Assembly: GCA_052388435.1 (NCBI GenBank)
Contig: JBQTIC010000047.1
Location: 36,027-100,026, forward strand
Direction: 5' to 3'
DNA from: Chromatiales bacterium
Lineage (GTDB): Bacteria; Pseudomonadota; Gammaproteobacteria; JAJPIJ01
Length of the DNA stretch: 64,000 nucleotides
The translations under genes were made by a program, and so were the position numbers. Each line of letters opens with the position of its first letter. The first letter of the stretch is position 1. The notes below the pieces were generated by a model, which saw nothing but the letters and a program-made list of their open reading frames with translations, was not told the origin of the DNA and did no database searches. Below are positions 7,025-64,000 of the stretch, one piece after another.

Positions 7025-7039
7025 CACGGGAGGGAACGG

Positions 7040-43165: not shown

Positions 43166-43714
43166 CTATTCCGTATCGAAGCCGGTGAACCGGAAGGTCA
43201 GGTCGCCGATGTCGATGATGTCGCCCTCGGCGAGGCTGGACGTTTTGACCTTCTTGTCGTTGACGAACACCCCGTTGAGCGACTCGAGGTCGGTGATCTC
43301 GAAGAGGCCGTCGCGACGGCGGTCAATCTGCGCGTGCTGGCGCGAAATCGACGGGTGCTTGAAGGTGAGTTCGTTGCGTTCGCTGCGCCCTATCCGGCAC
43401 GGCGTTTGCTGAATTACATAGCGGACGATTTCATCGCCCTGCTGGACGAGATAGGCGTGCATCTGGCTGGCGGCGGTCTGCTTGTGCGGTTTGGTACCGC
43501 GCCGACGGCGCTGCTGCAATCTGCCATAGACGCTCAGCGCGGCAAGCACCCCGAGCAGGAACGCGGCAGGGACCGCGTACCAGACCCATGTCACGTGCTG
43601 CGCCGGTGTCAGACTCTGCGCCTGCGCAGCCCAGGTGTCGAGCGTGTGCAAAACCGGGAACGGGCTGCCGTCGGCGAGCCAGCCCTTCTGCGCGCTGTCG
43701 AAGAGAGGTTCCAT
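43166..43714 (-). CDS. membrane-anchored FHA-domain protein
   Basis: TM WYAVPAAFLLGVLAALSVYG, basic stop-transfer RRRR, FHA motifs IGRS..SISRQHA..DLESLNGVFVN. Confidence 0.9.
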   Translation of the reverse strand: MEPLFDSAQKGWLADGSPFPVLHTLDTWAAQAQSLTPAQHVTWVWYAVPAAFLLGVLAALSVYGRLQQRRRRGTKPHKQTAASQMHAYLVQQGDEIVRYVIQQTPCRIGRSERNELTFKHPSISRQHAQIDRRRDGLFEITDLESLNGVFVNDKKVKTSSLAEGDIIDIGDLTFRFTGFDTE

Positions 43715-43838
43715 TAGGTTTGAGCTCCCGCTCGCAACGCAGCCTCGCCGCACCCCACGGCAGGGGCTGAGACTGAACCAACAAAAACAACATTCTGCCG
43801 CATCCGCCCGGTGTGCAAAAGGGTCCCTCCGTAGCTCG

Positions 43839-44330
43839 CTATTTCTCGGGAAATAGCGGGTCGGGCATGTCGAAGAACTGGATGTTGACCTCTTTGGCGC
43901 CGGTCGTCCTGTTTCTTGCGACCTCTACTTCGCCGAGTTGCGGAAGATTCTTGCGCAGCTTTTTGCCGGCATCGGTGACCTTGGTGTGCAGCAGAGGGGT
44001 GTGGGGCAGCACGTAGGCGCGCGGCACGTGCCTGCCCAGCTGTTGTTCCATGTCGGTCACCCAGAGATAGATGCGGCCCTTCGCCTGCGTGGTCTTGTTG
44101 GGCTCATCCACGGTGACGCCCACCAGATTGAAGCGATGAGGTAATCCGACACTCGTTGGCCAGCCGATGAGCGGGGCGTAGGACTGGAAGGTGGCGTAGC
44201 AAAAGAGTGCAACGAGCACGACGAAGACGGTCTTCACATACCAGCCCCACCGCGTCCTGAAGATAAGGCCCGCCAGCAACACGGCCAGCACAAGGTAGGC
44301 GAAAGTGATCCCGATGATTCCCCAGTTCAT
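43839..44330 (-). CDS. hypothetical 2-TM membrane protein (GWP..EP..WV..PRAY family), paralog 2
   Basis: Two N-terminal TMs; clear paralogy to 44377-45000. Confidence 0.8.
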   Translation of the reverse strand: MNWGIIGITFAYLVLAVLLAGLIFRTRWGWYVKTVFVVLVALFCYATFQSYAPLIGWPTSVGLPHRFNLVGVTVDEPNKTTQAKGRIYLWVTDMEQQLGRHVPRAYVLPHTPLLHTKVTDAGKKLRKNLPQLGEVEVARNRTTGAKEVNIQFFDMPDPLFPEK

Positions 44331-44376
44331 CTACTAGAACCCCCGTCCGATCTAACTTCCACAGCCCGCGGCCAGA

Positions 44377-45000
44377 TCACCCGGATGGCTGCGCCGGGGA
44401 CGCGCTCTCGCCCGGGGATCCGTCCTGCATGAAGTCGGCGGCCGTGGTATCACTGGTCGCCTCGGGCAGACCGCTCTTGGATGGTGGCGCATCCGGCGGC
44501 GCGTCGAAGAACTTGACCTGCAGCTTCTGGCTCTTCTGGCCGAGCTTAGCCTCGTCGCGCGGCACGCCGTGTCGACGGAGATCCTTGTCATCGGCCCCGA
44601 CCTCGCCGACTTGCGGCACATTCTTGCGCAGGCGCTGTCCGGCTTCCTTGGCGCGGGCGTGCAGCTCAGGCTCAAAGTCGGCCGCGTAAGCGCGCGGCAC
44701 GCTCGCGGTGCCGGCCTGCTTGTCCAGTACCCAGAAGAAGATGCCGCCCTCGGCGCCGGTGATCCGATCCGGCTCCTGGGCATACAGCGCGACCAGCTGA
44801 AAGCGCTTCGGCAGTTCTGTCGCGCTCGGCCAGCCGAGCAGCGGCGGGAACGAGAAGTACAGGACCAGATAAGCCGCTGTAGTCACGACGAGCAACAGCG
44901 CCTTCAGCGGCCAGGACCACACCGAAAAGATATTCAGTCCGGCAAGCGCTGCCGCGAGGATAACGTAGGCGGTGACCAGTCCGTTAATCCCGAGTGTCAT
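44377..45000 (-). CDS. hypothetical 2-TM membrane protein (GWP..EP..WV..PRAY family), paralog 1
   Basis: Two N-terminal TMs; paralogy to 43839-44330; 5 bp from the upstream gene. Confidence 0.8.
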   Translation of the reverse strand: MTLGINGLVTAYVILAAALAGLNIFSVWSWPLKALLLVVTTAAYLVLYFSFPPLLGWPSATELPKRFQLVALYAQEPDRITGAEGGIFFWVLDKQAGTASVPRAYAADFEPELHARAKEAGQRLRKNVPQVGEVGADDKDLRRHGVPRDEAKLGQKSQKLQVKFFDAPPDAPPSKSGLPEATSDTTAADFMQDGSPGESASPAQPSG

Positions 45001-45005
45001 CGTTA

Positions 45006-45632
45006 TTATCCAGTCCTTTCGAAGATCCGCCTGGTCAATGACTTGTCGATATGATTGACGTTGGTGATTCTTCCGTCCGTGTCGATGGTGAAGCGCACCG
45101 CCGTGCGCTCATCCCCGGCCTTCTCCATCTTGAGAGTGCCGTAGTACACCACCTCGAGCTGCGGATTGACCTTGTCGACGCGCACGTTAACGTCGACGGG
45201 CTTGCTATCCTCGCTTGCATAGTAGAAGAGGTTGACGACATATTCGCCCACCACCGTGCCGCGGATGGTTACGACCTCCTGGTTGAGCGGATTCTGCAGC
45301 GTCTGTCCGTTGATCGTCAGCGTGTCGTTGACATTGCCGCGATCGTCGCGATCGAGGTGGATGAGCCCCGCCTCCTTGTTCTGGAACCACACCAGATTGC
45401 CATCGGGCTCCTCCACCCAGGTATCGATGTCGTTCGGGTTCTTGTCCGCCCATTGCACCGTGATGATGTACTCGGCCTTCGGGTCAATGAGGCCCTTCTT
45501 GGCCACCGGGTTCATGAAGATGACTGCCAGGATGAAGAAAAACGTGAGGGCCTGGATGATCTTGAACAGGACTGCCGTGATCGGATCGAACGGCTGATGA
45601 AACTTCGATTTTGCGCTCAGGCGCAGCGGCAT
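45006..45632 (-). CDS. single-TM partner of MotA-like protein with acidic beta-rich (YfaP-like) periplasmic domain
   Basis: N-terminal TM, then W..NDIDTWV.EPDG..LDRDDRG..NQE..GEYVVNLFYY; 12 bp after the MotA-like gene. Confidence 0.75.
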   Translation of the reverse strand: MPLRLSAKSKFHQPFDPITAVLFKIIQALTFFFILAVIFMNPVAKKGLIDPKAEYIITVQWADKNPNDIDTWVEEPDGNLVWFQNKEAGLIHLDRDDRGNVNDTLTINGQTLQNPLNQEVVTIRGTVVGEYVVNLFYYASEDSKPVDVNVRVDKVNPQLEVVYYGTLKMEKAGDERTAVRFTIDTDGRITNVNHIDKSLTRRIFERTG

Positions 45633-45644
45633 TGATGGGATCCT

Positions 45645-46394
45645 TCAGTTCGACATGCGCAGGCGTGGCCAGACTTCGACCTCGGCCACGCGTATCGTGC
45701 TTTCCAGCAGCTCATCGAGACCGCGCCCCAGAAGATAATACGGGACCGAGAGCAGTATGCCGGTCACCAGGCTTACCAGCGTCGTGTTCAATGCCGTGCT
45801 CATACCAAAGCTCATCTGTTTAAGCACGCGCTGCATCATGCTGGCGTCGAGCAACTCCTGCTGCGAGACCGACCCCAGCATCATGATGAAGCCGATCAAG
45901 GTGCCGAGGAAGCCCACCTTGAGCATCAAATCGATAACGAACCAGCCGAACTCATGCGCGCTGCGAACCTCGGAGGCGTAGGCCTCGAGTATATCGGTCC
46001 TGCCTTCCGTGGCTTTTTCCGCCAACTCCTCCGCCTGCCTGGTCCTGACCAGATCGACGATGTAACGGGAGATGAAGCCGTCGGGCAAAAATTGCCCGTG
46101 TAGTGTCTGCACGCGCCCGTCGCGGATCTCCATGCGCTCGTCACGAAGCTGCGCGTCCAACATGGCCTGGGTTCGGGCAACCAGATTGAGCTCGCGCGAC
46201 AGGTACCAGGTTCGCCATAGGGAATGCGCCAGTCCGACGACATAGATGGCGATAACGACCAGGCAGATCATGCTGCGGTCGGTTTCGATCATGACCTGGA
46301 TCAGACCCGTGTCGAGACAGACCACAGTGCCGAAAACGATGAGCCCCACCGTCAACAGCCAGGTGAGCAGAAGGAAGTGCTCCGTGTTTTTCAT
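45645..46394 (-). CDS. MotA/TolQ/ExbB proton-channel family protein
   Basis: Four TMs; C-terminal hairpin GFLGTLIGF..GMSTALNTTLVSL. Confidence 0.85.
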   Translation of the reverse strand: MKNTEHFLLLTWLLTVGLIVFGTVVCLDTGLIQVMIETDRSMICLVVIAIYVVGLAHSLWRTWYLSRELNLVARTQAMLDAQLRDERMEIRDGRVQTLHGQFLPDGFISRYIVDLVRTRQAEELAEKATEGRTDILEAYASEVRSAHEFGWFVIDLMLKVGFLGTLIGFIMMLGSVSQQELLDASMMQRVLKQMSFGMSTALNTTLVSLVTGILLSVPYYLLGRGLDELLESTIRVAEVEVWPRLRMSN

Positions 46395-46506: not shown

Positions 46507-46680
46507 TAAGGAACCTCTGATTAAGTCAGAGGTTCCTGCGGCACAGGGATGCGCCGCCATCTTCGACGGCGGCAACCCGTTGAAGATGAAGCAAAGCAAA
46601 AACCACGCTTTTTGCTTTGCGGGCTCTGAGAAGTCGCTTCCTTAAAACCAGACGATTAAATCATCGCACGGCCTTGAGCA
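46507..46680. repeat. palindrome-rich intergenic element (MITE/REP-like remnant)
   Basis: AGGAACCTCTGA-5-TCAGAGGTTCCT (46509-46537), GCCGCC/GGCGGC, GCAAAGCAAAAA-6-TTTTTGCTTTGC (46591-46620). Confidence 0.6.
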
Positions 46681-46777: not shown

Positions 46778-47851
46778 TCACACCTTGGCTTCCCGTTCGA
46801 GCAGAGCGCGCTTTCGTTCCACGCCCCACCGATAGCCGGACAGTGCGCCATCGATTCTTACCACGCGATGGCAGGGTATCGCTACCGCCAGCGTGTTCGC
46901 TGCGCAGGCCTGCGCCACCGCCCGAACGGATTTCGGTGAACCGATCCGTTTCGCAATTTCCGTGTAGCTTGCCGTCGAACCAGCCGGGATTTCTCGCAAT
47001 GCCTGCCAGACGCGCTGCTGAAACGCCGTGCCGCGAACATCAAGTGGCAGCTCGAGACTTAAAACAGGGGCTTCGACGAAGCCCACCACTTTGGCAACGA
47101 GTTGCTCGAACCCTTCGTCAGCTCCGATTAGGTTGGCGCGCGGAAATCGGTCCTGCAAGTCGCGCACGAGCGCATCGGGATCATCGCCCAGAAGTATGGC
47201 GCAAACACCCCTTTCGCTCTGGGCTACCAGGATAGACCCAAGCGAGCATTCGCCGATGGCGAATCGTATTTTTCTATTGGCGCCTCCCGCGCGGTAGTCG
47301 CTCGGCGTCATCCCCAGTACCTGGTCTGATGTTTCGTAAAACCGTCCGCTGGAGTTGAACCCGGCGTCATAGACCGCCTCCGTCACCGTGCTGCTCCGAC
47401 CCAGTTTGTCTCGGATTCGTTTGGCGCGATGAGCAGCGGCGTAGACCCTCGGGGTAAGACCCGTGATGGCTTTGAAGACGCGATGAAAATGGAAGGTGCT
47501 CAGCCCTGCCCTTCTCGCCAGCGCGCCGAGGGTTGGAATTCTTTCGGCGCCTTCGATGAGTCGGCAGATGTGGGCCACCTTCATCGCATGTTGCTCGACC
47601 AACGGAGGCTGCTCAGGCCTGCAGCGCTTGCAAGGGCGAAAGCCCTCCTGCTCGGCATCGGCGCAGGTGGCGTGAAACTGGACGTTCTCAGGCTTTGCAA
47701 GGCGGGACCCGCAAGACGGGCGGCAATATACGCCGGTAGTCTTGACCGAATAATAGAATGTGCCGTCCGCCTCGCGGTCACGAGCGACGATGGCCGCCCA
47801 GCGAGGGTCTTTCTCAGTTGCGGGCTTCTTGGTGTTCGGAGAGGCGTTCAT
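46778..47851 (-). CDS. ada: bifunctional transcriptional activator / O6-methylguanine-DNA methyltransferase
   Basis: TTGVYCRPSC, FRPCKRC, AraC-type HTH, IPCHRV. Confidence 0.97.
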   Translation of the reverse strand: MNASPNTKKPATEKDPRWAAIVARDREADGTFYYSVKTTGVYCRPSCGSRLAKPENVQFHATCADAEQEGFRPCKRCRPEQPPLVEQHAMKVAHICRLIEGAERIPTLGALARRAGLSTFHFHRVFKAITGLTPRVYAAAHRAKRIRDKLGRSSTVTEAVYDAGFNSSGRFYETSDQVLGMTPSDYRAGGANRKIRFAIGECSLGSILVAQSERGVCAILLGDDPDALVRDLQDRFPRANLIGADEGFEQLVAKVVGFVEAPVLSLELPLDVRGTAFQQRVWQALREIPAGSTASYTEIAKRIGSPKSVRAVAQACAANTLAVAIPCHRVVRIDGALSGYRWGVERKRALLEREAKV

Positions 47852-48346: not shown

Positions 48347-48862
48347 TCAGTGCGACTTGGCCGCATCTCTCGCAGTGCTGACAGTCGAGGCGTTCTTTTC
48401 GATGGCGAAGGCCATGATCTCGCGCATCACAGCGTTCATACGGTGTGCGAAGGCGTTGACGCGCAGGTCGGGGTGATCCTCGGGCAGCAAAATGAGGCTG
48501 ATGACGGTCTTCCCGTCTTGTACATGTACCGTGATCCGACAGGGCATCATCGCCACGTAGCCCGGGTCGATCTCAAGCACCTCGCGGACATATTCGAGAC
48601 TGCAGAAGTGGATAACGAGCACGTCCGGGAAGTCCTTATAGCCCCGCTCCCGCAATCCCTTGCCAACAGCGTTTTCGCCGGTGATGCGGAAGTTATGTTC
48701 ACTGATGGCGAATTCCAGTTCATCGACGACGTCCTGGAACGACTTCTCCGTCGTCGTCCGGACGATAAGGTCCGCATAGGAGGTGGCGGCGGGACGCTCG
48801 GAGCAGGCAGCGAGCAGCATCCAGGCTGCTGTCAGCAGCACCACCGAAACGCCGCGAATCAT
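48347..48862 (-). CDS. DUF302-like lipoprotein
   Basis: Lipobox LLAAC; HFC..MMPCRITV pattern; ATGA overlap with the upstream gene. Confidence 0.75.
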   Translation of the reverse strand: MIRGVSVVLLTAAWMLLAACSERPAATSYADLIVRTTTEKSFQDVVDELEFAISEHNFRITGENAVGKGLRERGYKDFPDVLVIHFCSLEYVREVLEIDPGYVAMMPCRITVHVQDGKTVISLILLPEDHPDLRVNAFAHRMNAVMREIMAFAIEKNASTVSTARDAAKSH

Positions 48863-49455
48863 TCGACGATCACGACCCTGGTGCCGATGCTGACGTAGCG
48901 GCGCAGTTCCTCGGCCTGTTCGTTGGTCAGGGCGATGCACCCTTCGGTCCAGTCGATCTTCGTATGCTTGCCGAGCCGCTCGGTGCTCTGCGCGCCAAGC
49001 CCGTGTATGCCGATGGAACCGCCGAGCGGCGTGTCCTGCGGCGGAACGCCGTTGGCGTGGCTGGCCTGAACAATCGCGTCGAACTGGCTGCGGTTGATGC
49101 GGTGGTTCTTCAGGCCCCAGAACGCATCCTTGGCGTTGGGATAGTTCAGTTGCATGAACAGATGGAAGTTTTCGCTGTCCTTAAATTGCACGATGCGGTA
49201 AATTCCGACCGGCGTTTTGTGGTCGCCCAGCTTCTGCTTGTCGCCTTTCCCGCCGCGGCCGGAGGAGACGCGGAAGGACTTTTCGACTTTGTCGCCGCTC
49301 TTGACCAGCAGCAGACGCTTGGACTTGATGACTTCGATTTCATAATGTGCGGTCGCCCCGGCGGCGGAGGGCGCGGTACCGACCAGGAGCGCAAACGCGA
49401 TGCAGGACAATGGGACGCGCAAGTGGCGGATCAATACCGTCGACGAGTGGCCCAT
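48859..49455 (-). CDS. L,D-transpeptidase (YkuD) family protein
   Basis: KQKLGDHKTPVG.Y, LNYPN, IGIHG..WTEGCIAL. Confidence 0.9.
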   Translation of the reverse strand: MGHSSTVLIRHLRVPLSCIAFALLVGTAPSAAGATAHYEIEVIKSKRLLLVKSGDKVEKSFRVSSGRGGKGDKQKLGDHKTPVGIYRIVQFKDSENFHLFMQLNYPNAKDAFWGLKNHRINRSQFDAIVQASHANGVPPQDTPLGGSIGIHGLGAQSTERLGKHTKIDWTEGCIALTNEQAEELRRYVSIGTRVVIVE

Positions 49456-49610: not shown

Positions 49611-50186
49611 ATGAATGACAGAACTGCCGCAGTGGCGGTCGCTGCCGCCAGGTCCGCGCAGCGCTACACCCTTCCCGCGATCGGGCTGCACTGGATCACA
49701 GCGGTGCTGGTCTTCATCCTGTTTCCACTCGGTTGGTACATGGTCGATCTGCCGCCCGGGCCGGAGCGGGGTGCCAACTTCGCCCTTCATAAGACGCTGG
49801 GCATCACGGTGTTTCTGCTCACGCTGCTGCGGCTGGCCTGGCGGCTTCGCAATCCGGCGCCGCCGTTGCCGGATTACCTGCCCGCCTGGCAGAATCGCCT
49901 GGCGTACGCGGTTCACAAGCTCTTCTACGTTTTGCTCATCATCCATCCGCTGGCGGGTTATACCTCCTCCCAGTTCAGCGGCCATACGACCAAGTATCTC
50001 GGCATTCAACTGCCGCAATGGGGCTGGGAGGACAAGGCCATCAACGAATTCTTCACCGAGATACATACGGCTACCTCGCTTTGCCTGTTGCTGCTCGTGC
50101 TTTGTCACCTCGCCGGGGCCTTCGGTCATATCCTCAAGCGCGGTGATCGTCTCGCAAGGCGTATGCTGCCGTGGGGACGGCTGTGA
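49611..50186 (+). CDS. cytochrome b561
   Basis: LHWITA, LHKTLG, RLAWR, VHKLFY, two further TM His, RRM. Confidence 0.92.
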   Translation: MNDRTAAVAVAAARSAQRYTLPAIGLHWITAVLVFILFPLGWYMVDLPPGPERGANFALHKTLGITVFLLTLLRLAWRLRNPAPPLPDYLPAWQNRLAYAVHKLFYVLLIIHPLAGYTSSQFSGHTTKYLGIQLPQWGWEDKAINEFFTEIHTATSLCLLLLVLCHLAGAFGHILKRGDRLARRMLPWGRL

Positions 50187-50212
50187 GGGTGGTCGTGGAC
50201 GAACCCGATCCG

Positions 50213-50728
50213 ATGGCCGATGAGAGGCCTTTTCCTCTGCAACCCTGCAGGGGCTGCGGGGGTATGGTCCCGGTGGTTGACGCGCCGACGCCTCCCGACA
50301 TCAACACCGCCGCCGGTTGCTGGGCGCTGTACAAGAGAGTGCTCGGCTGTGAGTACGGCCAGTGGAGTTATCCGCAGTTGCACAGGCTCACGATGGATGC
50401 ATACGCCGCGCAGCACCCAGGGGGACACTCGCCGGAGGCCATTCGCTCGCTTGGTTCTCATCTGGTGGGACTGTGCGCGGCGGTTGCTCTCGGCCAGGAT
50501 GCCACCCGGTCGAACTGGGTGGTCGATCGGGTTGCGGCAGAATTTGGCGGCTTCGAGTGGCTGGAGCCGCCATGCACCGGAGGAATCATGACGATCGCCG
50601 ACGTTGCGGCCGCCCAGTCTATGCACGAGCGCGAACGTTTGGTGCGCGACTGGGGGCGCGACGTCTGGGACTGGTGGGCGCCGCATCACGCCACGATCCG
50701 GCGTTGGCTGGATCGGATCTGCGCATAG
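50213..50728 (+). CDS. DUF5946-like hypothetical protein
   Basis: CRGCG, GCWALY, HRLTMDAYAAQHPG, HLVGLC, W..VW..W..HH. Confidence 0.65.
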   Translation: MADERPFPLQPCRGCGGMVPVVDAPTPPDINTAAGCWALYKRVLGCEYGQWSYPQLHRLTMDAYAAQHPGGHSPEAIRSLGSHLVGLCAAVALGQDATRSNWVVDRVAAEFGGFEWLEPPCTGGIMTIADVAAAQSMHERERLVRDWGRDVWDWWAPHHATIRRWLDRICA

Positions 50729-50760
50729 CGTTAGCGAGTGAGCGGGCGGATTCTTCGCCG

Positions 50761-51292
50761 CGCGACATCATTCTGGCGGCGTTGTCCGCTGTCGGGTTTC
50801 TCGCAATGATCGCGTTGACCGGCGCATCGGAGCAGCACTAGCCGGCACAGTCAAGCACGCCTCTGACCTGCGCTCTGTCTGTACGATACGCGCAGTCATT
50901 GACGGCGACACGGTACTCTGCCGCGAGGGCAAGGCGCGCGTCCGGCTGCTCTGCATCGATGCGCCCGAGCTCGACCAGGGGGCGCCCGGTCATCAGGCGG
51001 CACGGTACCTCAGGCGCCTCATCCCCGCGGGGCAAACCGTCAGGCTCGAATTCGACAGACAGACGCGTGACCGCTCCTTGCCTACGTTTGGCTGCAAGAC
51101 GGCCGCATGGCCAACGAAGAGATGGCGCGCGACGGATACGCTGTTGCGTTTGTCCTGGGGCCCAACCTCAAATACCGCGGCCGCATCCGTGCCGCTCACG
51201 CCGACGCGAAACGGCGGGGCGCGGGTCTGTGGCACGACGGCGGCGCCCTCACCTGTCCCCCGCTTGCCTTCCGCTACGGGCGCTGCCTGTAA
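50761..51292 (+). pseudogene. thermonuclease (SNase-like), frameshifted
   Basis: VIDGDT..VRLLCIDAPE..RD, then a shifted frame LLAYVW..NEEMARDGYA..AK..GAGLW; YGR missing at ~51073. Confidence 0.8.
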
Positions 51293-51318
51293 GGACGCCA
51301 CCACGGCGGTCGCTGTCA

Positions 51319-52125
51319 TTACGCTTCTCGCGCGCCGCTCAGAACCTTGGCGAGCTTCTCGAACACCGGCGCTTGTGAGAAGCGCAGGCACGCCACCATA
51401 AGGCCGATGATGATGAAGCCCATCAGCACGGCGAGATCAATACCTACCGTCAGGTCCGCACCGAAGCGTTCGGGCGCGTCGCGCAGCAGGGCATGTTTCA
51501 TCAGGTCCACGCCGTAGCTGAAGGGATTCACCAACGCGACCACCTTGAGGTAGCTCGGCAGGTGCTGGATCGGATAGAGGGCGCCGCTCAGGAAGAACAT
51601 TGGAAAGATCACGAAGTTCATGATCACGGCGAAGTTATCGAGGGTGCGGCTGTAGACGGCGATCAGCATGCCGGTCGCCGCGCAGGTGAACGCGGTGATC
51701 ACCAGCGCGACGAGGAAGAGGCCGGAATGGGCCGGCATGCTGAAATAACCGATGAGAGCCAGGATGACGATCAGCATCAATGCCTGCGCCATGCCGGCGA
51801 TGGCTGCACTCACTGTCCGCGCCAGAATAATCCAGTAGTGCGGGAAGGGGGCGATGATGAGCATCCGCATCACGCCGGACTCCTTGTCGTAGACCAGCGA
51901 GAGCGAGGCCAGCATGGCGCCGAAGAGCAGAACCATGCAGAGCAGACCCGGCACCATGAATTGTTTGTATTCACCGCCAGCCATGCCGGAGAGCATCGCC
52001 TGGAAGCCGCTGCCGATAATGAACAGCCAGATGAGCGGACGGACCATCGCCGAGACCAGACGGCCACGCTGCCGCACCATGCGCGTGAGTTCGCGCCCGA
52101 CAATCGCTGCCAGTGCGCGCGTCAT
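51319..52125 (-). CDS. ABC-2 permease, PQQ-alcohol-dehydrogenase-associated type
   Basis: REL.R..RQRGRLVSAMVRPLIWL, LSLVYDKESGVMR, FA..MNFVIFPMFFLSGALYP, NPFSY. Confidence 0.88.
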   Translation of the reverse strand: MTRALAAIVGRELTRMVRQRGRLVSAMVRPLIWLFIIGSGFQAMLSGMAGGEYKQFMVPGLLCMVLLFGAMLASLSLVYDKESGVMRMLIIAPFPHYWIILARTVSAAIAGMAQALMLIVILALIGYFSMPAHSGLFLVALVITAFTCAATGMLIAVYSRTLDNFAVIMNFVIFPMFFLSGALYPIQHLPSYLKVVALVNPFSYGVDLMKHALLRDAPERFGADLTVGIDLAVLMGFIIIGLMVACLRFSQAPVFEKLAKVLSGAREA

Positions 52126-53066
52126 GCCGCCTGCTCCATATCGGCAGTGCGGTTCAGCCAGATGTACACGTCATTGAGATCGGGACGGCGCAGGCTCAAG
52201 GCGCGCACGTCCGACTGCAGATCGCGCTGCAGGTTCACGACATTCGCGCGCTCGTCCTGCACCCGGAACTGTACGTGGCTGCCCTCGATGATCGCCTCCC
52301 CGAGCACGGGCTGGAGCTGCTCGGCGTGGGTAGCCGGCGCGTCGGAGTCGATGTCGAGAATGAATGCGCCGAGCGATGTTATGAGGTCCTGGGGCCGTCC
52401 GGAGCCGATGAACCGCCCGTTGCGCATGAAGGTCACGCGGTCGCAGTCCGCGGCCTCCTCGAGATAATGCGTGGTGAGCACGATGGTGATGCCGTGCTCG
52501 CCACGCAGCCGTTCGAGGAAGCGCCAGATGGCGCGGCGGTTGATGACGTCCAGGCCGATGGTCGGTTCATCCAGGAACAGGACCTGCGGGCGATGCAGCA
52601 CCCCGCGAGCGATGTCGAGCGCGCGGCGCATACCGCCGGACAGGGTGGCGACCGGCGCGTGCCGCCTCTCCCACAGACCGAACAGGCGCAGCAGTTCGTC
52701 GGTGCGCTCACGGATGACGGGGCCTGGCAGGTCGTGGAGCGCACCCGCAAAGCGCAGGTTCTCTTCAGCGCTCAGGCTGCGATCGAGGGCAGACTCCTGG
52801 AAGACCAGACCGATATGGCGACGCACCGTGACTGCCTCACGGAGCACATCGTGGCCGGCAACGCGCGCGGCCCCGGCGCTGGGTCGGACAAGGGTCGAGA
52901 GCATGTGGAGCGTGGTGGTCTTGCCGGAGCCATTGCGACCAAGCAGCCCGAAAAACTCTCCTTTTCGGATATTAAATGTCAGGCCAGCGACCGCCTGGTG
53001 CTGGCCGTAACTCTTGGTCAGATTGAGAGCCTGGATGGCCGACTGGCTTTCCGCGGGTTGGTCCAT
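52122..53066 (-). CDS. ABC transporter ATP-binding protein
   Basis: GRNGSGKTT, LSGGMRR, FLDEPTIGLD, TTHYLEEA. Confidence 0.93.
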   Translation of the reverse strand: MDQPAESQSAIQALNLTKSYGQHQAVAGLTFNIRKGEFFGLLGRNGSGKTTTLHMLSTLVRPSAGAARVAGHDVLREAVTVRRHIGLVFQESALDRSLSAEENLRFAGALHDLPGPVIRERTDELLRLFGLWERRHAPVATLSGGMRRALDIARGVLHRPQVLFLDEPTIGLDVINRRAIWRFLERLRGEHGITIVLTTHYLEEAADCDRVTFMRNGRFIGSGRPQDLITSLGAFILDIDSDAPATHAEQLQPVLGEAIIEGSHVQFRVQDERANVVNLQRDLQSDVRALSLRRPDLNDVYIWLNRTADMEQAA

Positions 53067-53130
53067 GGCGGCCGAGATTCTATCAGAACGGTACCGCTGG
53101 GCCGGTGCGCGCAGTAGCAAGGAAAGCCAG

Positions 53131-53160
53131 AAAAAGAAGAAGGGGCCTTGCGGCCCCTTC
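53131..53160 (-). terminator. intrinsic terminator after pqqA
   Basis: Minus strand GAAGGGGCC-GCAA-GGCCCCTTC followed by TTCTTTTT. Confidence 0.85.
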
Positions 53161-53186
53161 TCGGTATTGCTTGAACTCTCGGATCG

Positions 53187-53261
53187 TTATCGGTTGCTGA
53201 TGTACATCGTCACTTCGAAACCAAAACGGACATCGCTGTAAGCAGGAGTTTCCCAACGCAT
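53187..53261 (-). CDS. pqqA: coenzyme PQQ precursor peptide PqqA (24 aa; absent from ORF track)
   Basis: Manual translation MRWETPAYSDVRFGFEVTMYISNR with W..P..R.GFExxxY signature; RBS GGAGG at 53270-53274. Confidence 0.96.
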   Translation of the reverse strand: MRWETPAYSDVRFGFEVTMYISNR

Positions 53262-53315
53262 GATCGTTACCTCCACTGTTTAACGTTAACTAGAAATTCT
53301 TCAGGAAGAAGTGAA

Positions 53316-53332
53316 TGCAGCGCCTATGCCAG
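53316..53332 (-). promoter_or_regulatory. sigma54 (-24/-12) promoter of pqqA
   Basis: CTGGCATAGGCGCTGCA = GG-N10-GC; AT-rich tract at 53350-53400; adjacent NtrC-type activator. Confidence 0.75.
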
Positions 53333-53536
53333 ATAGCTAGTCAGCGTTGTGCTATTTAAATAACATATAGATAATAATAAGTTAGTATATATAATTCATG
53401 TCACTTATGGGTAAAGTAGACGCGTTTAGATGCCAGAGTGGCTACTCCCAACCAGCGGGATGGTTCTCGGCAACCGGCCAGACACGATTTCCATTGTCTT
53501 CCGGACAGAAAGATATGCAGCGGTATACTGGCGCGC

Positions 53537-55015
53537 GTGCGCCTCTTCGAGCTCCGATCGCTGAAAGGTTTGCTTCTCGCCCACGAGCTGGCATTTCTCT
53601 TTCTGGTCATTGTCGCTGGCGCGCTCGGTGGTACCTGGGCGTATTTCTGGCAGAAGAACTCCGCTGAACTGTTCCGCCTCAATCAGCTCACCTACTCATC
53701 CTTGCAGATCCGCAGCGACCTGTTCCGGCAGATCAAGGAAGTGACCTATGCGCGGCTGACGGAGAACACCGACGCGCTCGCGCTGTACGGCGATTACTCC
53801 CGGCAAATTGACAGGCACTTCAACACGCTGCGGCAGCTCGCGGCGGCGCCGGATGAGAACGCCGCGGTGCAGGCCATGCAGCAGGCCTACCGGGTGCTGC
53901 AGTCGGACATGAACAACATCTTCTCCGATCCCTACCTCATCAGCCGCGTGGTTCCGATCCGCATACTCGACCTGCAGTACGAACAGACGCTGGTCGGCGA
54001 CTTCGAAGTGGCGCTACGGCGCTTCGAGCAGATCCTGCGCGCGAAGCAGAAGCGCCTGGACGCCACCCTGGCGACCTGGACCCGTTACGCGCCCATCCTG
54101 GTGCCACTGCCGATCCTCGTCGCCATCGCGCTGATAGTGGCAGCGCGCCGGTGGCTTCGGCGCGGTTTCGTGCAGCCGATGGCCGCCGTGATGAGCGGGG
54201 CGCGGCTCATCAGCAAGGGTGACCTGAACCATGTCATCCCGCGCGGTGGCGTGCAGGAGATGACAGACCTTGAGGAGGCCATCAACCAGATGGCGGTGGA
54301 CCTCGCCCGCTCACGCGATGCGCTGGTGGAAAGCGAGAAGAGCAGCGCCCTGGGCGCCCTGATACCTGTGGTGGCTCACAATATCCGCAATCCGCTCGCC
54401 AGCATCCGCGCCAGCGCCCAGCTTCTCGACCACGCCGATCAGCCCCAGGACATCGGCGACATCAGGAAGGCGATCATTGACACCGTGGACCGTCTAGGCC
54501 GCTGGGTCAGCGCGCTGGTGTCCTACCTGCATCCACTGAAGCCGCAGCCGGTCCGGCGCAATCTAACGGTTCTGCTCGAGGCGGCGGTCAGTCTGCTACA
54601 GGACCGCTTGGGAGAGAAGGGTGTCCGGGTTGAGCGTGGGGAGTGGGATACCTCGACGCAAGTACGGGTCGATCCCGACCTGATGGAGCAGGCCCTCTAC
54701 GCTCTGGTGTCGAACGCCATCGATGCGTCGCCGGCGGGCGGCACCGTCACGCTTGCGGCTTCGGGACGCGGCGAGGAGTTTTTGCTTAGCATCAGCGATG
54801 AAGGGCCGGGTCTGCCGTTCCAGCCGCAGCCGACTGGATTGACTCCCGGGCCGTCCACCAAGCGATTCGGCACCGGGCTCGGGATCCCGGTCGCCTTCAA
54901 GGTATGCAAGGCGCACGGCTGGAAACTTAAGTTCGAGCGGGGCGACAATTGCGGCACCAGGGTCATCATCACAGCGCCCGTGACTATCGAAGAGAAGGTT
55001 ACCGAGCATGCCTGA
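53537..55015 (+). CDS. HAMP-domain sensor histidine kinase
   Basis: TM-periplasmic helical domain-TM-HAMP, AHNIRNPL, NAIDA, DEGPG, GTGLG; start uncertain (53438-53537). Confidence 0.9.
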   Translation: MRLFELRSLKGLLLAHELAFLFLVIVAGALGGTWAYFWQKNSAELFRLNQLTYSSLQIRSDLFRQIKEVTYARLTENTDALALYGDYSRQIDRHFNTLRQLAAAPDENAAVQAMQQAYRVLQSDMNNIFSDPYLISRVVPIRILDLQYEQTLVGDFEVALRRFEQILRAKQKRLDATLATWTRYAPILVPLPILVAIALIVAARRWLRRGFVQPMAAVMSGARLISKGDLNHVIPRGGVQEMTDLEEAINQMAVDLARSRDALVESEKSSALGALIPVVAHNIRNPLASIRASAQLLDHADQPQDIGDIRKAIIDTVDRLGRWVSALVSYLHPLKPQPVRRNLTVLLEAAVSLLQDRLGEKGVRVERGEWDTSTQVRVDPDLMEQALYALVSNAIDASPAGGTVTLAASGRGEEFLLSISDEGPGLPFQPQPTGLTPGPSTKRFGTGLGIPVAFKVCKAHGWKLKFERGDNCGTRVIITAPVTIEEKVTEHA

Positions 55016-56423
55016 GAGCAACATCCTGGACGCCGCGGTCGCGATGCCACAGCGCACGCTCCTGGTTCTCATTGTTGAGGACGAAGATCTCTTCGCCAAA
55101 GCGGTCGCCAGACGCCTGGCCAAGGCCGGGTTTCAGTGCCAGACGGCGGGGACGCTCGCCAAGGCCGAGCAGTGCCTTCGCGAGCTGACGCCGGATCTCG
55201 TGCTGCTGGACATGCGGCTGCCGGACGGCTCCGGGCTGGATTTCCTTAGCCGCTTGCGCGGTGGCTCCGGCGCCGACGTTCCCGTGCTGGTGATGTCCGC
55301 GTACGGCGAGCTGGAGGACGCGGTGGCGGCAATGAAACTCGCCGCCTCCGACTACCTGAAGAAACCCATTGACCTCGACGAGCTGCTGGTCAACGTCGAG
55401 AAGGTGCTCTCCAAGGCGGAGATGGCGCGCAGCCTCGCATACTCGCGCAAGCGGGAGCGGCACGCCAAGGTGGAGGGCGTGCAATTGCTCGGCGATAGCG
55501 ACGGTGTTCGCGCCATCCGCGAGCAGGCCGAGCGCATCGGCAAGCTGGTGGCCGGTGCCGGCGTGGTGTTGCCGACGGTGCTCATCCTCGGCGAGACCGG
55601 CACCGGCAAGGATGTGACCGCCCGCCTGCTGCACGCGACGAGCGCGCGGCGCGAGCGGCCCTTCGTGCACATGGACTGCGCGGCTTTACCGAAGGATCTC
55701 ATCGAGGCGGAACTCTTCGGCCATGAGAAAGGGGCATTCACCAGCGCGCACGTCGAGCGCACCGGTCTCATCGAGGCAGCGGAGGACGGCACGCTGTTTT
55801 TAGACGAGATCGGCGAGCTGCCGCTGGAACTGCAGGCGAAGCTGCTGGCGGTGCTCGAGCGGCGGACGCTGCGGCGCGTCGGCAGCACGCAAGAACGGCC
55901 GGTGCGCTGCTGGTTCATCGCCGCCACGAACCGCGATATGGAGACGATGGTCAGGGAAGGCCGCCTGCGATCCGATCTGTACTTCCGTCTCAATGTTCTC
56001 ACGGTGCGGATGCCGGCGCTGCGCGAGCGCGGGGACGACATGGTGCTGCTGGCAAAGGAGTTCGCGCGCCAGGTAGCGGGGCGTTACGGGCAGAAAGCGC
56101 TTCAGTTCGATGACAGCGCCGTGGCGGCGATCAAGCGCTATCCCTGGCCCGGCAACGTGCGTGAACTGCGGCATGTCATCGAACGTGTCGTGCTGCTGTC
56201 GGGCGGCGGGCCGATTACAGCCGATGCGCTCATGCTGTCAGGGACCGCCGGTGCGCAAGGCGATGAGGCCGCTTCCCTCGATCGCCTCACGCTGGATCAG
56301 GCGGAGAAGCTGCTCATCGAGCGGGCGCTCAAGCGCACCGGAGACAACGTGTCGGAGGCGGCGCGACAGCTGGGCGTGACGCGGATGGTCATGCGCCACC
56401 GCATGAAGAAGTACCGGTTGTAG
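55008..56423 (+). CDS. sigma54-dependent NtrC-family response regulator
   Basis: Receiver (VEDE, LLDMRLPD, KKP), GETGTGKD, ELFGHEKGAFTSA, FLDEIGE, WPGNVREL, Fis HTH. Confidence 0.95.
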   Translation: MPESNILDAAVAMPQRTLLVLIVEDEDLFAKAVARRLAKAGFQCQTAGTLAKAEQCLRELTPDLVLLDMRLPDGSGLDFLSRLRGGSGADVPVLVMSAYGELEDAVAAMKLAASDYLKKPIDLDELLVNVEKVLSKAEMARSLAYSRKRERHAKVEGVQLLGDSDGVRAIREQAERIGKLVAGAGVVLPTVLILGETGTGKDVTARLLHATSARRERPFVHMDCAALPKDLIEAELFGHEKGAFTSAHVERTGLIEAAEDGTLFLDEIGELPLELQAKLLAVLERRTLRRVGSTQERPVRCWFIAATNRDMETMVREGRLRSDLYFRLNVLTVRMPALRERGDDMVLLAKEFARQVAGRYGQKALQFDDSAVAAIKRYPWPGNVRELRHVIERVVLLSGGGPITADALMLSGTAGAQGDEAASLDRLTLDQAEKLLIERALKRTGDNVSEAARQLGVTRMVMRHRMKKYRL

Positions 56424-63571: not shown

Positions 63572-64000
63572 ATGGACCTCAAGAAACTGAAGTTAGCGAT
63601 CCTGGTGGTGTTACTTTCAGGAACGACAGGCGCGGCGGTGGCCGGCGCAGAAACCGAGGCCGCTGCAACGACCGTTACGAAACCTGTTCCAAAAGACATC
63701 AACATCACGCAAGACATGCTGGACAAGTCGGACGGAGAGGGAACCAACTGGCTCCACTCCAATATGTCTTACAACAACAGCCGCTTCTATCCCGCCGATC
63801 AGATCAGCACCAAAAACGTCGCGGGTCTGAAGCCTGCCTTCGTGTTCCAGACGGCGGTAATGGAGTCTATGGAGACCTCGCCCATCGTGGTTGACGGCGT
63901 AATGTTCCTGACCACGTCGTACAATCACGTGTATGCCATCGATGCGACCACCGGTGAGGAGTACTGGCACTACAAGCACAAGATGGGCCCTATCACCACC
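63572..64000 (+). CDS. PQQ-dependent dehydrogenase, methanol/ethanol family (5' part, runs off window)
   Basis: Manual translation: signal peptide, [50 protein letters not shown]. Confidence 0.9.

Follow-up and report, generated by a model that had tools for sequence, protein, structure and literature searches.

Five genes lie in a row on the minus strand of the window, as the whole 64,000-nucleotide stretch of DNA analysed here is called, and encode the proteins A, B, P1, P2 and a TM-FHA accessory (Table 1). The gaps between the five genes, calculated from the ORF coordinates, were 12, 5, 46 and 85 bp, and the hydropathy analysis showed 4, 1, 2, 2 and 1 hydrophobic segments in A, B, P1, P2 and the FHA protein, respectively. 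The original prediction had described five co-oriented genes, the first four spaced by 12, 5 and 46 bp, with the same numbers of TM segments, and this layout was borne out. A hairpin with a 12-pair stem followed by a T-rich tail was detected by a consensus scan only.

Table 1. Features of the locus and its surroundings (positions in the window).
Feature	Position	Strand	Description
A subunit gene	45645..46394	-	249 aa, 4-TM MotA/ExbB/TolQ-family channel protein
B subunit gene	45006..45632	-	208 aa, N-terminal TM helix and predicted periplasmic TerD-like beta-sandwich
P1 gene	44377..45000	-	207 aa, 2-TM hairpin and small periplasmic domain
P2 gene	43839..44330	-	163 aa, 2-TM hairpin and small beta/alpha periplasmic domain
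TM-FHA accessory gene	43166..43753	-	195 aa, single TM near residues 57-75, FHA domain at the C-terminus
Terminator-like hairpin	46591..46620	-	lies between ada and the A gene
DUF302 protein	48347..48862	-	LAAC lipobox-like N-terminus; PF03625 E 3.5e-12
YkuD-type L,D-transpeptidase	48859..49455	-	signal peptide; PF03734 E 4.4e-24
Cytochrome b561 family membrane protein	49611..50186	+	PF01292 E 8.3e-31; divergent from the YkuD gene
ABC-2 permease	51319..52125	-	Pfam; pedC/pedB-like pair with the ABC ATPase
ABC ATPase	52122..53120	-	Pfam; pedC/pedB-like pair with the ABC-2 permease
PQQ-dependent dehydrogenase, start only (runs off window end)	63674..64000	+	PF01011 E 6.2e-62 at C47:99775

Related loci were compared in a set of 86 bacterial loci, in another 20 that belong to different taxonomic families (together 106 bacterial loci) and in viral contigs. 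The order A, B, P was the same in 82-86 of the 86 and 18-19 of the 20 bacterial loci and in 78/80 viral contigs, and three Rhizobium phages have it as well. The B, P and A clusters were present in 86, 84 and 83 of the 86 loci, and A was directly upstream of B in 82/86, 19/20 and 78/80 (viral) related loci. Since the first three kinds of gene follow one another in this way at almost all related loci inspected, the arrangement goes far beyond what chance would produce, and the survey of gene neighbourhoods called for by the original prediction thus revealed strong co-conservation. The stop-to-stop spacing in related loci equals the gene length, with frequent 4-bp overlaps. A, B and P form a tightly packed, co-inherited trio, which was found in bacteria of the Alpha-, Beta- and Gammaproteobacteria and, on the viral side, in 29 isolated Rhizobium and Sinorhizobium phages and 354 IMG/VR contigs. 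We are confident that A-B-P is a real and distinct module, widespread, uncharacterised and related to the ion-driven membrane motors of bacteria. Within the MotA/ExbB/TolQ motor superfamily it would form a three-component branch that had not been described before, with lineage-specific accessories.

The A subunit matched the Pfam family PF01618 (MotA_ExbB) over residues 128-229 at E 8.3e-8 and 32.5 bits, above the curated cut-off of 22.9, and the match covered the last two TM helices, which places A in the MotA/ExbB/TolQ family. The same region was recovered by the whole-genome scan at C47:81734-82042 (C47 being the window's contig), where A diverged furthest among the genome's six PF01618 matches. 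The motifs GFLGT in TM3 and ALNTT in TM4 are common to the family alignment, and ExbB and TolQ share both the Pfam family and the LGT and TT helix motifs. Unlike these two proteins, A has four TM segments, a topology shared with MotAB/PomAB, although its cytoplasmic domain is short compared with theirs. MotAB, ExbBD, TolQR and ZorAB are 5:2 ion-driven motors; in ExbB-ExbD-TonB and TolQ-TolR-TolA, which are proton-driven and sit in the inner membrane, the third protein acts as the transducer. As had been noted earlier, no tonB, tolA, flagellar or Zorya effector gene was found nearby: profile scans gave no ExbD, TonB_C or OmpA match on C47, flagellar genes were absent from the window and no effector was detected by PADLOC.

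The PADLOC ZorA1 model matched A at E 8.3e-9, covering only profile positions 9-174 (166 of 683). ZorAB is likewise a non-flagellar MotAB-like pair, and the partial match is consistent with a role in phage-host conflict (defence, superinfection exclusion or envelope takeover) for a Zorya-like MotAB-type unit whose chromosomal copies are domesticated or defensive. The numerous viral copies, a nearest Atlas cluster of B that is 55% viral and the phage inhibition conferred by ter operons count in the same direction. However, the 249 residues of A stand against a 683-position ZorA profile, the long ZorA tail is absent, ZorC, ZorD and ZorE are lacking, and B, like the other three proteins of the locus, had no PADLOC match; membership in Zorya was rejected on the partial ZorA1 match and these missing matches. 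The locus also lies within the housekeeping synteny dnaE-accA-tilS, kept across genera, and not in a variable island; its base composition was not atypical, the association with PQQ genes described below is strong, and carriage of the trio by phages themselves speaks against a simple anti-phage role. A conflict module is therefore considered quite unlikely.

No Pfam or NCBIfam model covered either B or P. The B protein had no match to ExbD or OmpA (PF00691) at E<=1 in the Pfam scan, ExbD (PF02472) was matched by 0/78 members of the B family, which comprises 1728 clusters at 50% identity (E<=1e-3), and only sub-threshold TonB_C matches were obtained (E 0.092 in Pfam and E 0.045 in a second profile scan). 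The AF2 model of B (pLDDT 91.5) showed an all-beta periplasmic domain that resembled TerD structures most closely (Foldseek E 5.6e-5 to 1.3e-3). VIA aligned 136-138 residues with the TerD structures 2qz7_B and 2kxt at Z 9.5, the next match having Z 5.9, and by both comparisons the modelled domain has the TerD beta-sandwich fold. The matched PDB entry 2kxt carries the title of a calcium-binding TerD. By sequence, TerD was absent from the Pfam scan of B at E<=1, and the PDB profile search gave no significant TerD match. The periplasmic domain had been described as acidic and beta-rich; the beta-rich part agreed with the model, whereas the acidity is only mild (27 D+E vs 20 K+R in 164 residues). 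Residues W61, D68, D70, D96, G99 and E119 are invariant in the B family alignment and include an acidic cluster (D68, D70, D96 and E119). The TerD family comprises tellurite-resistance, Ca2+-binding beta-sandwich proteins. TerD proteins are soluble, whereas B is membrane-anchored and periplasmic by topology. From the fold and the acidic residues, the B domain may bind Ca2+ or a lanthanide.

An identity of B as an ordinary ExbD or TolR was rejected by the PF02472 searches and by the TerD fold, which takes the place of their periplasmic domain, and a MotB type was rejected since B has no OmpA-like domain and C47 has no PF00691 match. Profile search and hhalign thus agreed with the earlier claim of a partner lacking a recognisable ExbD or OmpA-like domain, and the proposal of a distinct motor class held in that a MotA/ExbB-type system is paired with a partner outside ExbD, TolR and MotB. 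B resembles ExbD and TolR in its single N-terminal helix, which in most family members carries an Asp in the same register. The alignment of B by hhalign with the genome's own TolR and ExbD gave E 0.034 and 0.016, respectively, with Asp on Asp and restricted to the TM helix; homology to ExbD/TolR rests on this short helix (11-26 TM residues aligned) because the probabilities were only 1.5-2.9%. The Asp of the TM helix is kept in 70/78 aligned B members and in 80/80 viral copies. In the window B, A20 occupies the canonical Asp column and K24 follows one helical turn on, changing DLLFN to AVLFK; the Asp was missing in 119 of the 120 clusters closest to the window B, and the remaining one is N-terminally truncated. 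In MotAB/PomAB the ion site is the conserved Asp of the B helix, and for 5:2 motors this Asp is the proton site that defines them (PMC9389320). The B subunit of MotAB/PomAB has to be held in place by an anchor in the wall. The TM Asp of 5:2 motors is thus present in the B family at large and the canonical proton site is absent at the window locus. The label "ion-driven" of the original prediction fits the channel family of A and the Asp of most B members but is less safe for the window locus, whose B lacks this residue. A stator-like architecture of A and B is somewhat favoured.

The two 2-TM proteins P1 and P2 are paralogs (BLASTP 37% identity, E 2e-33), as had been noticed. The pair is a lineage-specific duplication of a single conserved third subunit, confined to the bacterial family of the window, which corrects the "paralog pair" of the original prediction. 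Neither protein matched a Pfam family or TonB_C, and the AF2 model of P2 (pLDDT 88.4) had no clear structural match in the PDB. The order of a channel, a single-TM partner and a third membrane protein is also that of exbB-exbD-tonB and tolQ-tolR-tolA, and with the ExbD-like TM helix and the weak TonB_C matches of B it would suit an ordinary extra Ton/Tol/Mot paralogue in which B would have diverged from ExbD/TolR and P would be a short counterpart of TonB/TolA. This reading is improbable in the extreme given the missing ExbD/OmpA matches and the TerD fold of B, the four TM segments and the divergence of A, and the complete canonical Ton and Tol sets located on contigs other than C47. P itself was rejected as a TonB/TolA transducer: it is a 2-TM hairpin with a domain of about 110 residues, lacking TonB_C and any Pro-rich spacer able to span the periplasm.

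In the P alignment (A3), G56, W57, P64, F67, P77, G85, P103 and K163 are invariant, the Lys being present in 40/40 aligned P proteins. Lys is the last residue in 44/82 and 14/18 bacterial P homologues (58/100 together), and 26/74 viral P proteins have no PxK near the end. P2 ends in ...FPEK-COOH and so exposes a C-terminal Lys like Lpp/OutB-type substrates; P1 does not, because a low-complexity tail of 32 residues comes after its conserved Lys. OutB, which sits in the inner membrane, is joined to peptidoglycan via its C-terminal Lys by YkuD-type enzymes (PMC12274547), a linkage that for P is predicted only. P resembles Lpp and OutB in a Lys at or next to the C-terminus and, in one subtype, in a YkuD gene kept beside the module, and differs in that its end reads LPEK instead of an Lpp box and in the residues that follow the Lys in P1 and in many viral P proteins. 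YkuD orthologues were found just upstream of A in 10/106 bacterial loci of 8 taxonomic families (the window's own and 7 others); the neighbour was absent from the 80 loci of the genome_contigs set and the 80 viral loci and is confined to one gammaproteobacterial subtype. The DUF302 gene probably starts with an ATG at 48862 that overlaps, as ATGA, with the stop codon of YkuD, and this gene is kept between YkuD and A in 9 loci; the cytochrome b561 gene is kept beside YkuD in 8 related loci. The L,D-transpeptidase is probably a functional partner of the module. The invariant Lys together with the conserved upstream YkuD gene suggests covalent tethering of P to peptidoglycan, a possibility that we regard as doubtful on balance.

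The original prediction had called the proximity to PQQ genes suggestive only, and the survey established a real association. A PQQ dehydrogenase, PqqB-like or PqqE-like ORF was present within <=8 kb in 45/86 loci. In L112, pqqB-C-E are directly followed by A-B-P on one strand, and in L045 a PqqB-like and a PqqE-like gene precede A-B-P in the same strand and order. Among 201 genomes of the class, a PQQ dehydrogenase (E<=1e-25) was found in 14/22 genomes bearing B vs 22/179 without it (odds ratio 12.5, Fisher p 3.7e-7, a p value that overstates the case because related genomes are not independent); the 8/22 B-bearing genomes lacking the enzyme at this threshold include one closed genome (G020). 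In sister genera, an orthologue of the window's dehydrogenase is located about 3 kb away from A. The D-x-D motif of the lanthanide type (rule from 10.1101/2020.02.25.964783) occurs in 21/30 neighbouring dehydrogenases, 8/30 being of the Ca type, and also in the window's enzyme, in the part downstream of the window. The module has ABC ATPase or ABC-2 genes in its flanks in 46/86 loci, and the ABC pair of the window matched HMMs built from such module-flanking genes elsewhere at E 4.8e-84 and 1.4e-73. In Burkholderiales, PedB/A2/A1/C-like ABC genes (ped names after PMC12997753) lie directly 5' of A-B-P, and ABC genes directly precede the trio also in L015, L100, L115 and L118. The trio thus sits preferentially beside genes of PQQ dehydrogenases, pqq biosynthesis and PedABC-like ABC transporters; the flanks of 26/86 loci contain neither PQQ nor ABC genes.

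These neighbours, including the pqq genes that precede the trio on the same strand, could also indicate a PMF-driven energiser or accessory of a neighbouring transporter, either a PedABC-like ABC-2 system for lanthanide uptake or periplasmic PQQ export. A flanking ABC gene is missing in 40/86 loci and ABC genes are missing from the phage copies; furthermore, no 5:2 motor is known to power an ABC transporter or the export of a small cofactor. Such a helper is held to be very unlikely. A role of the module itself in quinoprotein or metal handling is put forward tentatively, at rather less than even confidence, and the phage loci examined had no PQQ context. MxaACKL and Bat-like VWA proteins are needed for Ca2+ insertion into methanol dehydrogenase. 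The module is likened to them by description, as membrane-anchored periplasmic accessories in PQQ dehydrogenase clusters with VWA on two longer FHA accessories, although the window's own FHA protein has no VWA domain.

The best explanation of the whole, which we regard as almost an even call, is a three-component branch of the MotA/ExbB/TolQ superfamily with a metal-PQQ support role and P as the wall-fixed point. The A ring would enclose the B helices in the manner of the 5:2 motors. In most members of the family, conformational work would be driven by protons flowing through the A/B interface, at the B Asp in the "FxDLLFN" helix. The B sandwich, binding Ca2+ or a lanthanide, would be the working or sensing end. 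Unlike MotAB/PomAB, the module has no OmpA-like peptidoglycan-binding domain in B, and the terminal Lys of P, if the YkuD L,D-transpeptidase encoded alongside cross-links it to peptidoglycan, would stand in for it as the anchor. For the biological role, we infer support of periplasmic metal-PQQ quinoproteins via metal supply, loading or sensing. In the window lineage, the Asp was replaced, P was duplicated and a TM-FHA protein was added; therefore, coupling there may be altered and under phosphothreonine-linked control.

The FHA protein, which had been counted as part of the module, matched PF00498 over residues 119-183 at E 7.8e-20, confirming a TM-FHA gene at the locus, but FHA homologues were found downstream of P in only 5/86 and 4/20 bacterial loci (9/106), making it an accessory of one subtype outside the core. 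Two longer homologues scanned (511 and 557 aa) were VWA-FHA proteins. An unlikely alternative to the motor is a signalling device, in which A/B/P uses the TerD-like domain to sense periplasmic Ca2+/lanthanide or the state of the envelope or of the PMF and passes this on to the cytoplasm via the (VWA-)TM-FHA protein and Ser/Thr phosphorylation, so that the Asp-less window lineage needs no ion flow. Although the whole window clade has lost the Asp, B is still 65-92% identical across the 119 closest clusters, which points to purifying selection without the proton site. TerD is said, after Anantharaman, Iyer and Aravind in 2012, to be associated with vWA and PP2C/kinase genes in Ter systems. Against signalling, most members keep the Asp and the channel motifs, the FHA gene was missing from 97/106 bacterial loci and all 80 viral loci examined, and the genome scan placed no Hanks-type kinase or PP2C phosphatase beside the locus. 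On its side, the genome as a whole encodes about 14 Hanks-type kinases, 4 PP2C phosphatases and 5 FHA matches, and in G020 a PP2C-FGE fusion adjoins the trio.

The original prediction had described five co-oriented genes encoding proteins with 4, 1, 2, 2 and 1 transmembrane (TM) segments: a MotA/ExbB-type channel (A), its single-TM partner (B), two paralogous proteins (P1 and P2) and a TM-FHA protein (FHA). All five were recovered as open reading frames on one strand, with gaps from A to FHA of 12, 5, 46 and 85 bp, and a hydropathy scan gave the same segment counts. Pfam assigned A to MotA_ExbB (PF01618; E 8.3e-8, 32.5 bits against a cut-off of 22.9) and FHA to the FHA family (E 7.8e-20). No ExbD or OmpA match was found in B at E ≤ 1, P1 and P2 (37% identity, E 2e-33) matched no Pfam family, and none of the five proteins exceeded any NCBIfam cut-off. 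With PADLOC, A matched part of ZorA1 (E 8.3e-9, profile positions 9-174 of 683), and the other four proteins gave no match. All ExbD, TonB_C and OmpA matches of the window's own genome (G000) lie on contigs other than the window's; elsewhere this genome has five further PF01618 matches, three ExbD/TolR matches and one TolA-like gene. The open reading frame layout, the family searches and the contig positions therefore show that the locus had been described correctly, including the paralogy of the two 2-TM proteins and the lack of a recognisable ExbD or OmpA-like domain in B. An AgmX/PglI tail match was set aside, as its score (E 0.0023) was below the cut-off.

Coordinates of the features discussed, in the window unless another locus is named.
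Feature	Position	Strand	Description
FHA	43166-43753	minus	ORF, 195 aa; 1 hydrophobic segment
P2	43839-44330	minus	ORF, 163 aa; 2 hydrophobic segments
P1	44377-45000	minus	ORF, 207 aa; 2 hydrophobic segments
B	45006-45632	minus	ORF, 208 aa; 1 hydrophobic segment
B, changed helix site	45561-45575		residues 20-24
A	45645-46394	minus	ORF, 249 aa; 4 hydrophobic segments
Inverted repeat	46510-46531	minus	cctctga...tcagagg, upstream of A
Hairpin	46591-46620	minus	terminator-like, 12-bp stem, upstream of A and after ada
ada	46778-47851	minus	Ada-type methyltransferase/AraC
YkuD gene	48859-49455	minus	PF03734, E 4.4e-24
Block ahead of Ank	50171-56423		DUF5946, ABC-2 transporter, histidine kinase, sigma-54 regulator
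Ank	62757-63488	minus	ankyrin-repeat gene adjoining the PQQ dehydrogenase
PQQ dehydrogenase	start ~63.7 kb		D-x-D form
L012 (genome G020)	6175-8091		PP2C phosphatase fused to FGE-sulfatase domain
L107	5787-7322		VWA-FHA protein after P
L115	5721-7394		VWA-FHA protein after P
L119 (phage RHph_N3_19)	3604-4980		phage trio
L120 (phage RL38J1)	3522-5029		phage trio
L121 (phage 16-3)	3265-5126		phage trio

The conserved unit is the trio A-B-P (P being the family of P1 and P2), not the quintet. B was found in 11 of 41 related genomes, among them 7 of the 8 additional members of the window's taxonomic family. When the five proteins were searched by tblastn against six loci, A, B and P were present in all six and FHA in five, and two P copies occurred only in the window's own family. 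A pattern scan of a 185,579-species collection matched at least 600 stretches, at least 573 of them encoding a relative. The 80 loci kept come from Alpha-, Beta- and Gammaproteobacteria and include the cultured carriers Azohydromonas lata NBRC 102462, Rubrivivax albus, Ideonella livida and Pseudaquabacterium pictum. In the set of 86 loci formed with the six relatives, iterated HMMs detected A in 82, B in 86 and P in 85, and BLAST clustering in 83, 86 and 84, respectively. The gene order is A-B-P with common 4-bp overlaps, and the median stop-to-stop distances (614 and 514 nt) equal the gene lengths. An evenly drawn class sample (201 genomes, 198 genera) contained B in 22 genomes, each of a different genus and taxonomic family; 20 loci from 18 of these carried A in 19 cases and P in 18. 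The expected co-conservation thus held for A, B and P in nearly all of the 86 and 20 loci, and failed for the paralog pair, confined to one family, and for FHA, since an FHA-type gene follows P in only 5/86 and 4/20 loci. The two long versions scanned, encoded after P in L107 and L115 from taxonomic families other than the window's, are VWA-FHA proteins of 511 and 557 aa; the window FHA protein is, unlike these, a short version that lacks the VWA domain and has only ~55 residues ahead of its TM segment.

Other genes were observed beside a few trios. The PP2C-sulfatase fusion gene of L012 is convergent with the trio, in a genome (G020) with neither an FHA gene at the trio nor a PQQ dehydrogenase. 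L101 and L102, both from PQQ-less genomes, have a gene for a DsbH/DUF255 thioredoxin-like protein in the flank of the trio, and in L102 NlpC/P60 and class A PBP genes adjoin P.

A homologue search with B returned 1767 proteins at E ≤ 1e-3 from 1841 candidates, the best 120 of which are 65-100% identical; nearly all of these are annotated as hypothetical, and none carries a precomputed Pfam domain. In an exhaustive search of 50%-identity representatives, 1728 clusters reached E ≤ 1e-3, 1028 reached 1e-10 and 120 reached 1e-30. In an alignment of 78 mostly full-length members, W61, D68, D70, D96, G99 and E119 are invariant, and P76, L93, D97, G109, R124, G129, N134, N156, P157, E175 and G187 nearly so. 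Pfam over all 78 members gave DUF2135 in two (best E 8.8e-4) and nothing else notable. The DUF2135/YfaP label, which occurs in two source names and one Atlas cluster name, was rejected for the family, since no more than 2/78 members reach E ≤ 0.01. By profile, the partner is accordingly no ordinary ExbD, TolR or MotB, as had been proposed. One rival reading makes the trio an ordinary Ton/Tol paralogue. When the alignment was compared with TolR and ExbD of G000 by hhalign, only the TM helix aligned, with the family Asp falling on the TolR/ExbD Asp and with weak statistics (E 0.034 and 0.016; probability 1.5% and 2.9%, respectively). We are highly confident that the trio is real and distinct, and we lean towards a stator-like complex, as suggested by homology in A and in the B helix.

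The AlphaFold2 model of B (pLDDT 91.5) comprises a helix at residues 17-40 followed by an all-beta domain. Its best Foldseek matches in the PDB were of the TerD family (2qng and 2qz7, E 5.6e-5; 2kxt, by its title a calcium-binding TerD, E 1.3e-3). An independent VIA scan of 48,161 chains ranked 2qz7_B and 2kxt at the top (Z 9.5; next entry 5.9), with 136-138 residues aligned at an rmsd of 4.0-4.2. Among PDB chains, neither sequence nor profile searches with B gave a significant match, and the profiles did not reach TerD; Tk-subtilisin beta-jelly-roll rows were weak, motif-level matches (E 0.36-0.46). The modelled periplasmic domain thus has a TerD-like fold with a conserved acidic cluster, that is, a shared fold and not proven TerD membership. 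From the fold and the acidic cluster we infer that this head, the proposed working end of the trio, probably binds metal.

PMC9389320 places the proton site of the 5:2 motors on an Asp that is conserved halfway along the B helix. An Asp occupies one TM-helix column in 70 of the 78 aligned B proteins, within the motif F-x-D-L-L-F-N, and is present in 80/80 viral copies. At this site the window B has D-P-I-T-A-V-L-F-K, against D-P-F-T-D-L-L-F-N in gammaproteobacterial relatives of other taxonomic families; the Asp is replaced by Ala and the Asn four residues on by Lys. The Asp motif was found in none of the 120 closest B clusters: 117 carry the Asp-less pattern, two are near variants and one is N-terminally truncated, and the paired change to Ala (or Val) and Lys holds in 119. 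The same paired change is seen in a further group of representatives (F-D-P-F-x-V-M-L-F-K). B proteins of the Asp-less clade are 65-92% identical and so are under selection, not decaying, and A of the window retains the GFLGT and ALNTT helices. The paired change may mean that coupling is altered, or that the complex is regulatory and does not conduct. Together with the duplication of P and the accessory FHA gene, the loss of the Asp points to a modified window variant, possibly regulated or signalling; one rival reading makes the trio a sensor. How MotA/ExbB motors couple to ions could be studied in the Asp-less, Lys-bearing clade as a natural experiment. A different substitution was seen in TM3 of A in L037, L038, L045, L047, L051 and other Burkholderiales, where the Thr of G-L-L-G-T, conserved elsewhere, is Lys (GLLGKVIGF) and B retains the Asp.

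The third subunit was compared in an alignment of 40 P proteins, in which G56, W57, P64, F67, P77, G85, P103 and K163 are invariant. The AlphaFold2 model (pLDDT 88.4) shows a TM hairpin followed by a small domain of five strands and one helix, and the helices are joined by a basic loop, which would place both ends of P in the periplasm. Foldseek gave no match for P at E ≤ 0.001, the top rows being weak and OB-like (SSB/PriB, AB5 B-subunits). The helical hairpin (residues 1-55) took up the VIA list, which therefore says little about the periplasmic domain; a novel fold is not claimed. Complex prediction of B with P2 from the two alignments gave no verdict either way (score 0.00, mark 0.32, without controls). 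P ends in the motif D-x-P-x-P-x-L-P-E-K, whose Lys is the final residue in 44/82 and 14/18 bacterial P proteins and stands at most three residues from the C-terminus in most others; of 74 viral P proteins, 35 have a PxK at 0-3 residues from the C-terminus and 26 have none. In the window, P2 ends at the motif Lys and P1 runs 32 residues further.

Of 106 bacterial loci, 10 (L013, L014, L017, L015, L100, L107, L110, L113, L115 and L118) carry an orthologue of the window's YkuD-type L,D-transpeptidase gene (E 1e-37 to 3e-78) immediately upstream of A and in the same orientation; these loci represent the taxonomic family of the window and seven more. The 80 species-collection loci, mostly alpha- and betaproteobacterial, and the 80 viral loci had none. 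A DUF302 protein and cytochrome b561 are conserved alongside YkuD, and in the window the probable DUF302 start overlaps the YkuD stop (ATGA). PMC12274547 describes Lpp and inner-membrane OutB as joined to peptidoglycan via a C-terminal Lys by L,D-transpeptidases, and its authors suggest that other periplasm-exposed, Lys-ending proteins may be attached likewise. The terminal Lys of P, the YkuD neighbour and this precedent led us to propose a peptidoglycan tether of P. Such covalent anchoring, read from the Lys motif and the gene neighbourhood, is less likely than not in our estimate. If real, it would give the complex a fixed point that B, devoid of a wall-binding domain, cannot supply, and would extend covalent peptidoglycan attachment to a motor component.

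Proximity to PQQ genes, regarded at first as suggestive only, proved to be a real association. Flanks of the 86 loci were clustered and representatives scanned for neighbour families. The trio is near a PQQ dehydrogenase (PF01011) in 31 loci, a PqqB-like metallo-beta-lactamase in 21, a radical-SAM/SPASM PqqE-like protein in 11, an ABC ATPase in 39, an ABC-2 permease in 25, a YNCE-type beta-propeller in 12, a probable binding protein in 16, a sigma-54 activator in 25 and TctC in 13. A PQQ gene is found in 45 of the 86 loci, an ABC gene in 46, either in 60 and neither in 26. On one strand, pqq genes run directly into A-B-P in L045 (PqqB-like and PqqE-like ORFs) and L112 (pqqB-C-E). In Burkholderiales, genes for an ATPase, a beta-propeller, a binding protein and an ABC-2 permease precede A-B-P, which is the content of the PedA1A2BC lanthanide transporter (PMC12997753). 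This company accommodates the rival in which the trio is a transporter helper.

In the 201-genome sample, a PQQ dehydrogenase (PF01011 at E ≤ 1e-25) was present in 14 and absent in 8 genomes with B, and present in 22 and absent in 157 without B (odds ratio 12.5; Fisher p 3.7e-7, inflated by kinship of the genomes). Two B-less, PQQ-positive genomes (G046 and G124) are flagged as unpublished, and omitting them gives 14, 8, 20 and 157. The closed genome G020 is one of the eight with B and no PQQ dehydrogenase. Among 30 aligned neighbouring dehydrogenases, the residue two past the catalytic Asp is Asp in 21 and Thr in 8, the latter all from one alphaproteobacterial group; Asp in this D-x-D position marks lanthanide enzymes and Thr calcium enzymes (10.1101/2020.02.25.964783). 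In sister genera, a PQQ dehydrogenase orthologue lies ~3 kb from A, in the order dnaE-accA-tilS-FHA-P2-P1-B-A-DUF302-YkuD-cyt b561-Ank-PQQ dehydrogenase. In the window, ada stands between A and DUF302/YkuD; it is not there in three sister-genus loci and so looks like an insertion into the cluster. A block with RtcB and others besides the tabulated genes separates cyt b561 from Ank, and the kinase and regulator lie beyond the dehydrogenase in sister genera (L014, L017), which argues for a local rearrangement in the window. An ankyrin-repeat gene beside the trio or the dehydrogenase was also observed in Burkholderiales L085, L089 and L097. Judged by this genomic company, service of the trio to periplasmic metal-PQQ enzymes is a tentative possibility, somewhat short of an even chance. 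The link bears on the metal supply of periplasmic quinoproteins and on how the lanthanide switch is served.

An Atlas look-up of B hinted at viral members, and a tblastn search of 50,697 phage records found B in 29, each a phage of Rhizobium or Sinorhizobium. Three of them, RHph_N3_19, RL38J1 and 16-3 (a temperate phage), encode, ahead of B, a mini-A of 113-147 aa that retains the two channel helices and has no cytoplasmic domain. A P-like 2-TM protein follows B, with one small ORF between them in 16-3, where the trio lies in the region of p038, p040 and p042; all these genes are annotated as hypothetical. In IMG/VR, 354 of 389 pattern matches encode a relative. Of the 80 loci kept (GC 31-49%), 78 contain all of A (~170 aa), B and P, and contig ends truncate the remaining two. 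Apart from the trio, the genes that recur in these loci are all typical of large phages (Hsp20, ClpP, a sigma-70 region-2 protein, GDP-mannose dehydratase). The contigs are taken as phage from the collection's own call and from the nearby Hsp20, ClpP and sigma-factor genes; PHROGs on the flanks of two large viral contigs gave just two informative matches, a ligase and a protease. The trio is kept whole in phages and is thus a self-contained, transferable unit; its use there with no PQQ genes nearby limits the quinoprotein hypothesis. Carriage by phages also brings in the rival of a phage-conflict module.

Taken jointly, the proposals describe A-B-P as a mobile class of membrane motor common to bacteria and phages. 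A dedicated L,D-transpeptidase would cross-link the terminal Lys of P to peptidoglycan as a covalent stator anchor, and the TerD-like head of B would bind Ca2+ or lanthanide and draw on membrane energy to load PQQ quinoproteins with their metal cofactor or deliver it to them. In a large sub-clade including the window, exchange of the proton-binding Asp for a Lys one turn off would give a different coupling chemistry. This combination as a whole is improbable, and the cultured carriers and Rhizobium phage 16-3 make its parts testable.

To our knowledge, the outputs of the MotA/ExbB superfamily are a handful: flagellar rotation, TonB transport, Tol-Pal, gliding and Zorya. Channel A comes from this known superfamily; partner B, third subunit P and their context are undescribed in the libraries and literature searched. 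B and P have no Pfam or NCBIfam model, yet occur in about one-ninth of the sampled class genomes and in hundreds of viral contigs. Our literature search found nothing tying a MotA/ExbB-type gene to PQQ, ped or xox clusters and, as far as found, no TerD-like B subunit. MotA, ExbB and TolQ do not occur in the ped-cluster review (PMC12997753), and the accessible text of a MotAB phylogeny (PMC12505986), whose supplements may list members, mentions non-flagellar proteins of unknown function and does not describe the trio.

Minor observations concern regulation. G000 (2.9 Mb) has ~14 Hanks-type kinase, 5 FHA and 4 PP2C matches, numbers that seem high to us for a gammaproteobacterium of this size. 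Upstream of A, a sigma-70 scan gave one site against 0.7 expected, which is uninformative, and no good -24/-12 match to a sigma-54 promoter was found when the sequence was read by eye. The same region contains the terminator-like hairpin and, seen by eye, a second short inverted repeat.
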